Part shown: positions 4,917 through 63,983 of the stretch, piece by piece
How positions within the stretch are numbered: the first letter of the stretch is position 1
Layout: each line of letters starts with the position of its first letter
From: Eledone cirrhosa
Taxonomy: Eukaryota
Assembly: GCA_964016885.1 (NCBI GenBank)
Contig: OZ024753.1
Span: forward strand, 41,044,001 to 41,108,000
Reading direction: 5' to 3'
DNA length: 64,000 bases
Notes under the pieces: generated by a model
The model's input: the letters and a program-made list of their open reading frames with translations, nothing else
What the model was told of the DNA's origin: nothing
The model's database searches: none
Program-made: the position numbers and the translations under genes

Positions 4917-5122
4917 ATAGGAACGAGTAGGACCCCGACGACTGAGCTCAAGCCGTTTCGACGGCTAATTCTGGACTAATTCTTGTCCAGAATTAGCCGT
5001 CGAAACGGCTTCAGCTCAGCCGTCGGGGTCCTACTCGTTCCTATTACCCACTCTACTACCCTAAGTATTGAGTACTTTGGTGCGTTATGGTCCACCTGGT
5101 TCCTTACCACATTTCCTTCGTT
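4917..5122 (+). mobile_element. HHR family B fold-back copy in (TA)n
   Basis: Short inverted arm 4917-4977 and long arm 4985-5122. Contains GAAA-cggct..agccg-TC^gggg, the 3' half of a hammerhead, and the family 3' end TATTGAGTACTTTGGTGCGTTATGGTCCACCTGG. Confidence 0.85.
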
Positions 5123-5820
5123 ATATATATATATATATATATATATATATATATATATATATATATATATATATATATATATATATATATATAAGCTATT
5201 TCAAGCGTTAGCCTAATATGTTCCTCCAATATACTGTACCGATTGTGTTTTTATTTCTGTTTACCTCTTACATATGTATATATATATATATATATATATA
5301 TATATATATATATATATATATATATATATAGTGTATATTTTGCTGAGAGTGTATAACATATGAGTAGTGTGTGTATGTGTAAAATATGATAAAAAGAAAA
5401 AAAAGAAATCAATGTATAATTTGAAACAAAATTTCAATTCAAATCGATTAAGCAGTTTTTCTGTTGTTAATATTTTATCTTTTAGTGAATATTTCAAGTT
5501 TTAATCCCTTGTAAGTCATTTTATGAAAACCTATTTCGTTGCATTGATTTTAAATCTCCTGAGAGAAGAGGTAGAGAGAACTGAATTCCCCCCCCCCCAC
5601 ACACACACACACAGACACACTCACACATTCTTCGTACAGACACAACCTCCACCCTGCACACTAAAAACACGAGAAACTTAACTTGGAGTTAGATAAAGCT
5701 GGGTTCATTTTTTGTATCTTTAATTCTTTTGAGAATCTTACGAATGTCAAATATATTTATTTTAACCTCATTCTTGAACTAAAATGTCTTGCGAGCTAAA
5801 ATGAAAGATATATATATAGA

Positions 5821-5984
5821 GGAAGAATCGACTCCAGTACTTGACTGGTACATTTTTTATCGATCACGAATGGATAAAAGACAAAGTTGACGTCGTTGGA
5901 ATTTGAACTCAGAGAGTAGAGAGCCGGAGTGAATACCGCAAAGCATTCTATCCGACGTACTAAAGACTCTGCCAATTCTCTGCC
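5821..5984 (-). mobile_element. Older, diverged SINE of the main family
   Basis: GACTGGTACA..TATCGA..AAAGTTGAC..ATTTGAACTCAGA..AAAGCATT..CTGCCAA align to the SINE consensus on the reverse strand. Confidence 0.8.
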
Positions 5985-6225
5985 AGAACAAAGCTCTACA
6001 TGGTACTGATAGACTAATATAACATGTATATTTGGTTTCATCAAAAGACAGCTGGAGAGATGTCAAATTGTAAGGGGCAATAGTATATTGAAGATTTCGT
6101 TTGTGATATATTTAGTTTATTTATGTCATTAGCGCACGGATGTCGTGATTTCTCTATTTTTGAGATTGTATATAATGTGATAAATTTGAATTGGAATGCT
6201 GGAGGTCCGACAAAAGTACATTTAA

Positions 6226-6434
6226 CCCTTTAGCATTTACATTACTCTATATTTTTGTGGTAAAGGTTTTATCTTACATAATTATCTCACATAATATTGA
6301 ATCTACAAGATTTTGATATTATATATTTTGAGAACGATCCCTAAACGTTGGTATGAACAGCCAGTTATAATCAGTTTGGACAGAAATAGGTTAGAGAATT
6401 CTGGCCGGATACGGCCGGTTTAAATGCAAAAGGG
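6226..6434. mobile_element. piggyBac-like MITE
   Basis: TIRs CCCTTTAGCATTTA / TAAATGCAAAAGGG, flanked by TTAA at 6222-6225 and 6435-6438. Confidence 0.85.
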
Positions 6435-6980
6435 TTAAGAAAATACCGTAAAATTTTATAATTAGGAGAAATAATTTCTTTACATTCCAGTAAAGGTACG
6501 ACAAAATATAGAATATACGTTTATTATCACTGTGGCTTACTGTTTCAATTATTTTTCAAATTAAATTAATAATTTATGAAGATCAAATCTTAAGAGTTAC
6601 ATTAAGAGTTACATTAGTTCTACATTTAGCACCGTAGTAGCTTTACAAGACTCGTTACCTTTGGTAATTGAGTATAAAATTAAGTAAGCTTAAAACAGTC
6701 ACGCTAACGTAATGTAGATTTGCTTGTAATTATATTGCAATGATACCTTATATATATATTTAAAATATGTGGAAGACAGTTTGGTTAACAAAGTGATGAC
6801 TTTAATATAGTTAGTTATAGGTTCAGGTTCTAACTAAATATTTAATCGAATGGCTTATGCAACAGTATAACTGACGGGTTGTTATGTAATATGAAGGAAA
6901 TATTATAAAAATTAAGTTAAATGTTACTTAAATAAAATAACACACACATATATATATATATATATATATATATATATATA

Positions 6981-7735
6981 TGTATTAACAACCAATTTTC
7001 GCTTTTTTTATTATCATTGTTCAATACACACACACACACACACACACACACACACATATATATATATATATATATATATATATATATATATATATATATA
7101 TATATATGGTTCCGATTTTTATGATAAATTTAGATAATACATTTGCACACGCGAAATATTATGTCACAAAGTGTGTTTATAAATATATATATATATATAT
7201 ACAATATTAAATAAATGGAAAACTATATTTATAAAACCATATTTATTTCATTATATATATTTCGGGGATATCATATTAACAATATGCTATGCCTTCATCA
7301 GACAAAATACAATATAAACAGTTTTATAGATAAATATATTCGACATACCGTAATAAACATCAACTTCATTTGAAGAGGTTTACTCTAATATTGTAAATAT
7401 ACTCCAAATATTTGTCGAGTGCTTTTATATCAGTTATAAATATTTACTAGTTGTAACCCAACAATCTTAAATATAACTTTACATATATATATATATATAT
7501 ATATATATATATATATATATATATATATGTATGTATTAACAACCAATTTTCGCTTTTTTATTATCATTGTTCAATACACACACACACGCACACACACACA
7601 CACACACACACACACACACACACACATATATATATATATATATATATATATATATATATGGTTCCGATTTTTATGATAAATTTAGATAATACATTTGCAC
7701 ACGCGAAATATTATGTCACAAAGTGTGTTTATAAA
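6981..7735 (+). repeat. About 200-bp direct duplication (6981-7183 and 7532-7735) flanking a family C element
   Basis: TGTATTAACAACCAATTTTCGC...(CA)n(TA)n GGTTCCGATTTTTATGAT...GTGTGTTTATAAA occurs twice, nearly identical apart from microsatellite length. Confidence 0.9.
7244..7309 (-). ncRNA. Hammerhead ribozyme, family C (element 7200-7483)
   Basis: tattttgt-CTGATGA-aggcatagcatatt-gtt-aatatgatatcccc-GAAA-tatata-TA^atgaaata. Confidence 0.72.
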
Positions 7736-7862
7736 TATATATATATATATATATATATATATATATATATATATATATACATGTAAAGTTATATTTAAAA
7801 TTGTTGGGTTACAACTAGTAAATATTTATAACTGATATAAAAGCACTCGACAAATATTATTG

Positions 7863-61296: not shown

Positions 61297-61869
61297 ATAT
61301 ATCTTCTCTCTATATATAATTACAACTCGATCTCTCTTCTTTATCCTAAATTCCATTCCAGCTAAATAAATGAACAGTTTTAACTAAAAGAAAAAAATTA
61401 TCTGGTTTTCACTCCACTGGAACTGTCGAAAATCGTTCAAAATCAACGGATGGTTGATTTTAAATTGGTTCTTTCTTTCTTCATATCCATCTCTCTCGTA
61501 TGTCGCCATATCAGTGTTATTGGTTTCATGCACACGACATTCTATAAATTTGGAAGATTTCTATTCATATTTGAAATTCTCAAAGCTCCCTAATTTAAGA
61601 TATCTATTCCTTTTTTTCCGTTTGAAGCATTGTGTTCTTGTTAATATCCCCTCGTCTCCTTCTCTCAACATTACCCCCTTCTCTCAGCCTCCACCACCTC
61701 TCTCTCTCTCTCTCTCTATCTCTCTATCTATCTATCTATCTATCTATCTCTCTGTCTCTGTCTCTCTCTCTCTCTATCTCTCTCTCTGCCCCCCCCTCCC
61801 CATCTCTCTCTCTCTATATATATATATATTTAACCATCTAAGATGTTTAGAAAGTAGTAATTGTTTTTA

Positions 61870-62125
61870 GCTATTTACGTTCTTTGCTCAAATCCCGCAG
61901 TGGTTGACTTTGCTTGTCTTCCTTGCGGGATCGATAAAGTAAAGTACCAGTAGAGCACTGGGGTCGATTTAATCGAATTTTCCCTCTGACAAAATTGTTG
62001 GCCTTGTGCCTAACGTTGGTTTTCGTCCTTACGGAGCAGAGAAAATATAGTACCAGTTAAGAACTGGGGTCGATATAATCGAATTTACCCTTCCACTAAA
62101 TGACTGGCCTTGTGCTAATGTTAGT
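61870..62125 (+). mobile_element. 5'-truncated SINE with duplicated long tail
   Basis: Two tandem GTACCAGT..ACTGGGGTCGAT.TAATCGA..GGCCTTGTGC modules. Confidence 0.8.
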
Positions 62126-62200
62126 TGTGGTTTCAAGATCTTTTACTCTCCAAACATATGGAAATGTACTGCCATCGAAGACATCAAGATGTTCCACTCT

Positions 62201-62682
62201 ACACCACCGCCATTACTACTACTACTACTACTACTACTACTACTACTACTACTACTACTACTACTGCTGCTACTACTACTACTATTACTACTACTACCAC
62301 CACCACCACCACCACCACCACCAACAACAACAACAACACTACTACTACTACTACTACCGCTACTACTACTACTACTACTACTACTGCTGCTGCTACTACT
62401 ACTATTACTATTACTACCACCACCACCACTACTACTACTACTATTACCACCACCACCACCAACAACAACAACACTACTACTACTACTACTACTACTACTA
62501 CTACTACTACTACTACTACTACTGCTGCTACTACTACTATTACTACTACTACCACCACCACCACCACCACCACCACCACTACTACTACTACTACTACTAC
62601 TACCACAACCACCACCAACAACAACAACAACAACAACACTACTACTACTACTACTACTACTACTACTACTACTACTACTACT
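62201..62682. repeat. (CTA/CCA/CAA)n compound microsatellite
   Basis: Direct inspection. Confidence 0.95.
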
Positions 62683-63106
62683 CAAGAGATCAATAAATGA
62701 AGACAGATGACAGATTATACAAGGGAATCACATTAATTATTTAATGATAACATTGAAAGATTTAATCCTATCTGGATTCATTGTGATTCCAATTCTGTTC
62801 TTTCTGACATCGTCTTTGGAAAGTGACTCAGCTAAATCGTGGCGTCTTTGACATAAGAATTACTATTGCAGACTTTATACTTCTCACAAGGAATTAGTCA
62901 CATACATCCAGAGAGAGAGAGAGAGAGAGGGAAAGAGGGGGAGAGGGGGGGGGGAGAAAGGCAGAAAGATTGAAATAACGAAAGAGAGAGAGAGAGAGAG
63001 AGAGAGAGAGAGAGAGAGAGAGAAAATGAGAGAAAGAGCAACAGAAATATATATATTTATATATACGATATTAAACAAATGGAAACTATATTTATAAAAC
63101 CATATT

Positions 63107-63172
63107 TATTTCATTATACATATTTCGGGGATACCATATTAAAAATATGGCATGCCTTCTTCAGATAAAATA
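63107..63172 (-). ncRNA. Hammerhead ribozyme, family C (element from 63064)
   Basis: tattttat-CTGAAGA-aggcatgccatatt-ttt-aatatggtatcccc-GAAA-tatgta-TA^atgaaata. Confidence 0.75.
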
Positions 63173-63869
63173 CAATATATAAACAGTTTTATAAATAATT
63201 TTGACGTACCATAAATATTGAGCAACCGTTATGTAGGAAGCCGGTTTGGTAGTGAGATGCTTATAAATATTTAGTGTTAAGCACAGTTAAAAAGAAAGAC
63301 GGAGAAAAAGAAGAAATGTATGTAAAGAAAAACAGAGAGAAATAGAGAGAGATAGGGGAGAGAGAAATAGTGAGGAGGTGAAAAAGGAGAGGCAGCTGAA
63401 GGCAACAGATGAATAATAATAATAATTCATATTATATATATATATATATTTATATATATATATATATATATATATATATATATATATATATATATATATA
63501 TATATATATATATATATATATATATAATATAATATATATATATATAATATATATATATAATATATATATAATATATATATAAATATATATATATATATAT
63601 ATATATATATATATGGAGATAAATGGAAAATATGGTTTTATAAAGATATTTTTCCATTTATTAATATTATTAATATACATATATATATATATATATTTAT
63701 ATATATATATATATATATATATATATATATATATATATATATATATATATATATATATATATATATATATATGTATATATGTATATATATATATATATAT
63801 ATATATATATATATATATATATATATATATATATATATATATATATATATATATATATATACATACATA

Positions 63870-63983
63870 TATAGGAAAAGAGTCAGGACCCCGACAGCTG
63901 AGCTCCGGCCGTTTCTACTACCCTAAGTATTAGAACTCTGGTGCGTTATGGTCCACCTGGTATCTTACCACACCTTTGTTTGG
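63870..63983 (+). mobile_element. HHR family B copy with clean inversion of the 5' segment
   Basis: Inverted ATAGGAAAAGAGTCAGGACCCCGACAGCTGAGCTCCGGCCGTTTC joined to sense TACTACCCTAAG...3' end. Confidence 0.85.

Follow-up and report, generated by a model that had tools for sequence, protein, structure and literature searches.

How can separate insertions of a short repeat break off at exactly the same letters and do so in both orientations, head to head? The question is raised by family B, a repeat in a 64,000-nt stretch of Eledone cirrhosa DNA (hereafter the window; positions 41,044,001–41,108,000 of contig OZ024753.1 in the 3.0-Gb assembly GCA_964016885.1). Nine copies of family B lie within the window, and in seven of them an arm ends at ...TTCC|TA and runs into (AT)n. 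A sequence-only reading of the window had proposed that both ends of a break in (TA)n prime reverse transcription, and this is the best reading of what we find: family B consists of 5'-truncated copies of a Penelope-like element (PLE) inserted in (TA)n, with arms that end at two fixed sites, A and B, and with an A arm almost always paired with a B arm.

We define site A as ...TTCC|TA followed by (AT)n and measure all offsets from it. Site B is ...CCTTCGT|TA followed by (TA)n, 80 nt beyond site A; the stretch from A to B is the tail. L-numbers (such as L061) label individual sampled loci. Contig C1 (first 27 Mb) and young subfamilies supply most of the samples, and it is on these samples of loci that pairing and related properties were counted. 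One pattern for A-ended arms of young subfamilies has 18,246 exact matches in the genome against 0 for a reversed control pattern; thus the fixed outer end at A, correctly anticipated by the sequence-only reading, is not due to chance. The twin pattern for arms that read through A has 18,205 matches, a ratio of about 1:1, and exact matches to a 30-mer from the tail number at least 25,095. Among 185 de-duplicated insertions comprising 294 arms, a set partly selected on A or on the tail, the outer end is at A in 108 and at B in 128.

The same ends are seen in unassembled data. Loose (AT)n ends occur in raw 150-nt reads from two other samples with the same species label: 3,419 and 2,901 reads have one at A, whereas 8,473 and 9,168 have one at B. 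A strand switch inside the element is visible within single reads. Because raw reads show both ends and the strand changes, the shape of family B is, at the level of the family, not an assembly artefact. Contigs from another organism have the identical two ends. Read-end peaks at positions 3336 and 3325 of L061 in restriction-site-associated DNA sequencing (RAD-seq) runs fall on AATT, are probably restriction cuts and were not used to place the inner ends of the arms.

A Penelope-like parent with two internal sites

Following long copies upstream leads to L061, a 6.5-kb head-to-head insertion. Its first arm (3.8 kb, ending at A) comprises a partial pseudo-long terminal repeat (pLTR), the tail, a reverse transcriptase (RT) open reading frame (ORF), a GIY-YIG-like ORF and a 3' region; the second (2.8 kb) is inverted and ends at B. 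On the + strand the pLTR starts at -210 and is followed by the tail and the ORF, and the element terminates at site A, which makes the pLTR a partial tandem; its tail and the beginning of the ORF region overlap. The RT and GIY-YIG-like coding capacity, the partial-tandem pLTR and a hammerhead-like motif support the PLE parent that the sequence-only reading had suspected. The same reading had taken the site that follows CCTAT and its downstream sequence for the native 3' end. Here it erred: past site B the element continues into its ORF in L037, L056, L061, L169 and L176, so site B is internal, like site A, and priming at the RNA 3' end is not supported.

The L061 ORFs contain RT-type motifs and VIY..YIG; in this copy the catalytic motif is damaged to YRDY and there is one frameshift. 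A Pfam search of these ORFs returned no match, Pfam and PDB sequence searches gave the RT no name, and a related family has only a weak Pfam GIY-YIG match (E=0.012). Homologues of the L061 ORF protein number 2,124 at E<=1e-20 and are mostly ~700 aa long. The protein carries SDKTG (the DKT motif), CNCPDGSIC (a CxCX5C linker), CNLC (CxxC) and CKH (CxH), has one Cys within the GIY-YIG core, lacks CCHH, and reads RLRWR at the position of the RWK motif of the Hydra clade of PLEs. Family B inserts in (TA)n, as does that clade, and by these motifs the parent appears to match the Hydra clade as far as it is described in the available text of PMC8557442. We dropped an assignment to the Neptune clade; DKG, the CX2-5CxxC linker and CCHH were not found. 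Other PLE families with Hydra-type motifs (DKT, a CxCX5C-like linker, intact YRDD) lie a few kb from family B copies (L064:2067–4590 and L066:8615–10000).

The pLTR carries a type I hammerhead-like motif, read by eye, with stems I–III, GAAA, a GUC cut site and a palindromic stem III loop, TGAGCTCA. The predicted cut is at -17 and is distinct from the outer breakpoint at site A. An Rfam scan of the window, which contains only the 3' half of the motif, gave no gathering-level match, and its low-score matches are of microsatellites to miRNA models. The minimum-energy RNA fold did not yield the hammerhead, and RNA folding revealed nothing special at A or B.

Pairing of the arms and the case for one RNA

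Typed head-to-head pairs among the 185 insertions are 94 AB (one of which runs on past B), 1 BB and 0 AA; the remaining insertions are 14 pairs with one untyped end and 76 with one arm. In 49 unselected insertions we count 19 AB, 0 AA and 0 BB, the others having single or untyped arms. The first 56 consecutive A-ended arms of contig C1, picked irrespective of partner, behave alike: 50 have an inverted B partner within 2.6 kb, two more have one further off (L217, L221), four have none, and an A partner is never found. A second, unrelated family with a tail of ~80 nt has AB ends in 13/13 head-to-head pairs in the fetched loci. Strict A+B pairing is explained by a pLTR that offers just one A and one B. 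Some copies consist of the tail only, exactly from A to B between two (TA)n runs (L167, L177, L181, L183); either microhomology at A produced them or their A arm has been lost.

The two arms of a pair share alleles and length. In 79 pairs with enough overlap, arms differ at 16/448 subfamily-diagnostic positions, compared with 95/3,120 at other positions and 41% for shuffled pairs. Concordance of alleles alone is weak evidence because subfamilies of different age would give it too. Coupling of arm lengths is stronger evidence for a common template: when one arm extends beyond -80, its partner does so in 16/20 junctions, against a baseline of 7/83 tail-selected arms that long. The arms of L061 have 12 private variants in common, together with the damaged RT motif and the frameshift, and 4/8 other long pairs share 1–3 private variants. 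In L001–L030 the direct arm seemed to have C where the inverted arm has G; this apparent discordance was disregarded, since the query itself carries the C.

Inner ends cluster as well. Arms start mostly between -52 and -63, and in contigs of run X1 the summed depth is ~30-fold higher in the bin after -48 than in the bin before -66 and drops ~200-fold past B. Two initiator (Inr)-like motifs lie at -62 and -58, and we read the wall at -58/-62 as run-off at a putative transcription start in the pLTR. A separate peak of arm starts after an AT-rich flank lies at the predicted hammerhead cut, with 112 starts at -17 (a few of them tandem repeats of one place) versus 13 at -16; in a hand tally of offsets -14 to -24, ~27/53 places are at -17. 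If the general rule for PLEs proposed below holds, this peak would be the trace that hammerhead cleavage of PLE RNA in vivo has left in the genome.

Arms overlap by at least 10 nt in 65/75 pairs and do not in 10/75; the B arm starts at or inside the tail in 10/75. Joints are blunt, share 1–8 nt or contain short inserts copied from the arms, as expected from end joining. Many apexes are near-symmetric, and perfect palindromes centred at -62/-63 recur. One joint is repeated letter for letter in ~29 of 100 listed rows (hand count), and such identical apexes are what copying from pre-inverted masters, either MITE-like (miniature inverted-repeat transposable element) or palindromic RNA, would leave. 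This origin, which the sequence-only reading had named as fatal to its own proposal, and an origin as assembly artefacts are nonetheless largely refuted, and we give them hardly any credence: the recurrent joint spans different subfamilies (L168, L162, L198), most apexes differ, the arms match a full-length PLE, and raw reads contain both ends and the strand changes. The insertions are independent, as had been supposed, with differing apexes and at least five subfamily haplotypes, each with matching arms. Very short A arms also occur as tandem repeats (contig C12 24548324–24548445, with a 24-nt period; L225, with three -57 arms), which suggests local amplification after insertion.

We consider two-ended priming at a break in (TA)n probable and favour, with less assurance, its form on one RNA, with A on one end and B on the other. 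The endonuclease (EN) of the element would break (TA)n, and the two DNA ends would anneal to the two TA-starting sites, A and B, of one pLTR on one RNA, each priming one cDNA. An RT–EN dimer may hold the RNA. The B cDNA would extend through the segment that the A cDNA covers, displacing it or following it in time; to our knowledge, PLE RTs are without RNase H. Most cDNAs of both kinds would end by run-off at a shared RNA 5' end, be it the putative pLTR start site (-58/-62, Inr-like) or the hammerhead cut (-17), and the others would stop early. After trimming, end joining would link the two 3' ends head to head, using microhomology or adding short templated inserts. The 5' pLTR of the transcript would be the source of short copies and its 3' pLTR that of long ones.

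Overlapping arms, according to the sequence-only reading, would need two RNA templates, with hammerhead dimers as a candidate, or strand displacement. The strictness of A+B pairing, the alleles common to both arms and the coupling of their lengths argue for one RNA and one pLTR and favour displacement; two templates are not needed. Priming of both ends on two RNAs held in one particle (for example by the hammerhead stem III loop), usually from one locus, is a possibility that we think unlikely. Overlap would then require no displacement, the loop is palindromic, PLE hammerheads have been proposed to work as dimers (PMC4209133), and a few pairs are discordant in haplotype (2–3/79), long-short (4/20) or BB. 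However, two RNAs alone explain neither the coupling of 5'- versus 3'-pLTR use (16/20 versus the baseline of 7/83) nor the 0 AA in 52 A-selected pairs, for which an extra asymmetry of the particle would be needed. Less likely still, in our judgement, is single priming at B, after which the cDNA folds back and copies itself to A, where EN or (TA)n microhomology ends synthesis, and the centre is trimmed. This is close to the self-priming and "EN-mediated resolution" ideas in the available text of PMC3846280 and PMC8557442. It yields A+B pairing, identical alleles and coupled lengths, and it suits the many near-symmetric apexes and the enrichment of pairs in which both arms are short (odds ratio 8.4, p=0.001). 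A folded-back A arm could not reach upstream beyond its B arm, so pairs with a longer A arm test this model. The A arm is 0.5–1.3 kb longer than the B arm in L036, L042, L043, L056 and L227; under fold-back these pairs, like lone A arms and pairs without overlap, would each have to have lost a large piece from one side. Fold-back cannot produce discordant haplotypes, and RT priming from cut DNA at both sites has been seen in vitro in another PLE, according to the available text of PMC11167929. Fold-back is thus disfavoured and goes no further down than that, since loss of the palindrome centre could mimic the A-longer and non-overlapping cases.

Several observations weigh against two-ended priming on one RNA. 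Fold-back followed by later loss of the palindrome centre predicts shared alleles and coupled lengths as well, and two RNAs of one locus predict shared alleles. In 65 pairs scored in a symmetric window, the A arm is longer by more than 10 nt in 12 and the B arm in 4 (p=0.08); these figures replace an earlier count of 20:2 for a longer A arm, which was detection-biased against short A arms. AA palindromes, being longer and perfect, might be lost. BB pairs exist (L153, L034 and L063, the last two among long copies), arm haplotypes are clearly mixed in 2–3 of the 79 pairs (L178, L188, L161), and 4 of the 20 long junctions are long-short. Because of these discordant, long-short and BB cases, a minority of events would use a second template or the other pLTR. 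The start site at -58/-62 is putative: a cap-derived G at -58 is balanced by C (22 G versus 27 C in 49 matches, with a control of n=3 only). Hammerhead cleavage likewise is a prediction, with a core that reads YUGANAA and has A at position 8 (U3-A8 or C3.A8).

Obligate double priming on a single RNA as a rule for PLEs, with an RT–EN dimer, a cDNA from each end of the tail and side of the break, displacement and run-off at a common 5' end, is a more tentative proposal, which we put forward with reserve. If true, it alone would account for the tail and the inverted pLTR as well as for the abundance of short palindromic copies.

Family B and other elements in the window

The family B copies listed by the sequence-only reading are all present with their CCTAT/(AT)n breakpoint, at coordinates right to within ~10 nt (the copy placed at 11279 is the one ~10 nt off). 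A arms end at 4920 (-), 9129, 11266, 24113 (-), 35845, 60251 and 63874 (-), and the read-through form CCTAT-TACCCAC is found at 5040, 11149 (-), 47153 and 60166 (-). The arms are as follows.

4920–4979, - strand: A arm, inverted and without tail, from -60 to site A; (AT)n at 4907–4918
4985–5121, + strand: B arm from -57, with the 3' half of the hammerhead motif, site A at 5042 and the 80-nt tail at 5042–5121, then (TA)n
9065–9129, + strand: lone A arm of an older subfamily, flanked by two (TA)n runs, without inverted partner
11080–11213, - strand: B arm, -54 to site B
11214–11266, + strand: A arm, -53 to site A; joint with the B arm blunt
24113–24175, - strand: A arm (-59) of an older subfamily; near its end TA takes the place of a few letters
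24172–24242, + strand: B arm that begins within the tail (~+8) and does not overlap the A arm
32438–32524, both strands: extra copy; tail at 32438–32515 on the - strand (from +9) and a 9-nt A stub at 32516–32524 on the + strand
35640–35777, - strand: B arm of an older subfamily, -58 to site B
35791–35845, + strand: A arm (-59) with a small deletion before its end; 13-nt spacer to the B arm
47123–47235, + strand: lone B arm from -30
60097–60190, - strand: B arm from -14 (short overlap)
60195–60251, + strand: A arm from -57
63874–63918, - strand: A arm from -43, older subfamily
63914–63983, + strand: B arm that begins within the tail (+10); it shares 5 nt of microhomology with the A arm

Inverted or short segments are thus found where they had been reported, with the copy at 9.1k a lone A arm and those at 32.4k and 47.1k overlooked. 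A copy had been placed at 24124 "after a small deletion": the copy is there with its A end intact and inner letters replaced by TA, and the small deletion belongs to the arm at 35.8k.

Repeat-finder output for the window is dominated by (TA)n. A second AT-rich family with a hammerhead-like core (CTGATGA...GAAA) has the same A/B architecture and occurs at 7201–7480, 7783–7970, 12161–12484, 35998–36470 and 63066–63213. At 10613–11031, microsatellites are bracketed by inverted arms of ~77 nt with a compact, outward-facing hammerhead-like motif (CTGATGAG..GAAAC); the arms are possibly two insertions of a third PLE-like family. Inverted arms of ~200 nt around a 220-nt unique core at 40669–41277, with one end at (AT)n, are either MITE-like or another PLE-type inversion. 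A family of ~190 nt resembling short interspersed elements (SINEs), with a tRNA-like head, is found at 43367–43749 and 45088–45492 and in single copies at 1799–1985, 59526–59671 and 61103–61291; it forms a tail-to-tail inverted pair at 43.4k and occurs in opposite orientation again at 45.1–45.5k. Large ACC-rich and minisatellite arrays (periods 3, 41, 62, 147 and others) occupy 13747–20400, 21774–23786, 25029–28442, 37759–39595 and 50313–51870.

Comparison with known systems

In L1 twin priming, both ends of a break prime on one RNA, which gives an inverted segment and a microhomology joint. The L1 priming sites are the poly(A) end and an internal position that varies, and the two segments do not overlap. 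The likeness to L1 drawn by the sequence-only reading holds for two-ended priming and fails for the lack of overlap: most family B arms overlap, typically by ~55 nt and in some cases by kilobases. Unlike in L1, both family B sites are fixed and internal, there is no poly(A), and the first primer is not at the RNA 3' end.

Among PLEs, the typical shape is an inverted 5'-truncated pLTR with a 30–40-bp tail at one end only, according to the available text of PMC3846280, PMC8557442 and PMC2377424, where self-priming or EN-mediated resolution is favoured. Like D. virilis Penelope and A. vaga Pen2a as described there, family B has an inverted truncated copy head to head, an extension at one end, a partial tandem and a palindromic joint. 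It differs from them in that its tail is 80 nt instead of 30–40, that most copies are minimal (~60 + 140 nt) with a fixed inner wall, and that A+B pairing has been counted. The fixed-breakpoint signature as such is already published for PLEs, and the novelty implied by the sequence-only reading does not stand: tail-less inverted pLTRs are described in PMC3846280 and PMC8557442, and two internal RT starts in vitro in PMC11167929. The origin of the inverted pLTRs and tails is stated as open in the available text of PMC8557442 and left open in that of PMC11167929. In the main texts of the open-access literature we found no count of A/B pairing, and no paper on PLEs and twin priming there is about PLE inversion by title or abstract.

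Compared by description with the Hydra clade (PMC8557442, available text), family B shares the C-terminal EN, DKT, the CxCX5C linker, CxxC and CxH, the lack of CCHH, and (TA)n insertion; unlike the clade, it has RWR for RWK, a length of ~3.5 kb instead of <3 kb, and a variant hammerhead core.

The closest experimental system is Poseidon_Ac (Frangieh et al. 2024, PMC11167929), for which the available text reports that in vitro both strands of AT-rich DNA are cut and extended and that two internal RT starts bound the tail. The Poseidon_Ac protein is predicted to be dimeric, as we propose for family B, and initiation is near the pLTR–ORF junction in both. Its start site has no homology to the target, whereas both family B sites read |TA and match it; no RNA reads were found at the hammerhead cut, whereas family B genomic arm starts peak there; and that text reports that the start site has no strand preference and is silent on the inverted copy and on A+B pairing. 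What family B adds is a set of countable rules: A goes with B, both arms come from one master and one pLTR, and inner ends lie at fixed RNA positions. These rules account for many short palindromes flanked by (TA)n runs, a large class that could be mistaken for MITEs or hairpin RNAs, and they give sharp predictions for the existing in vitro system.

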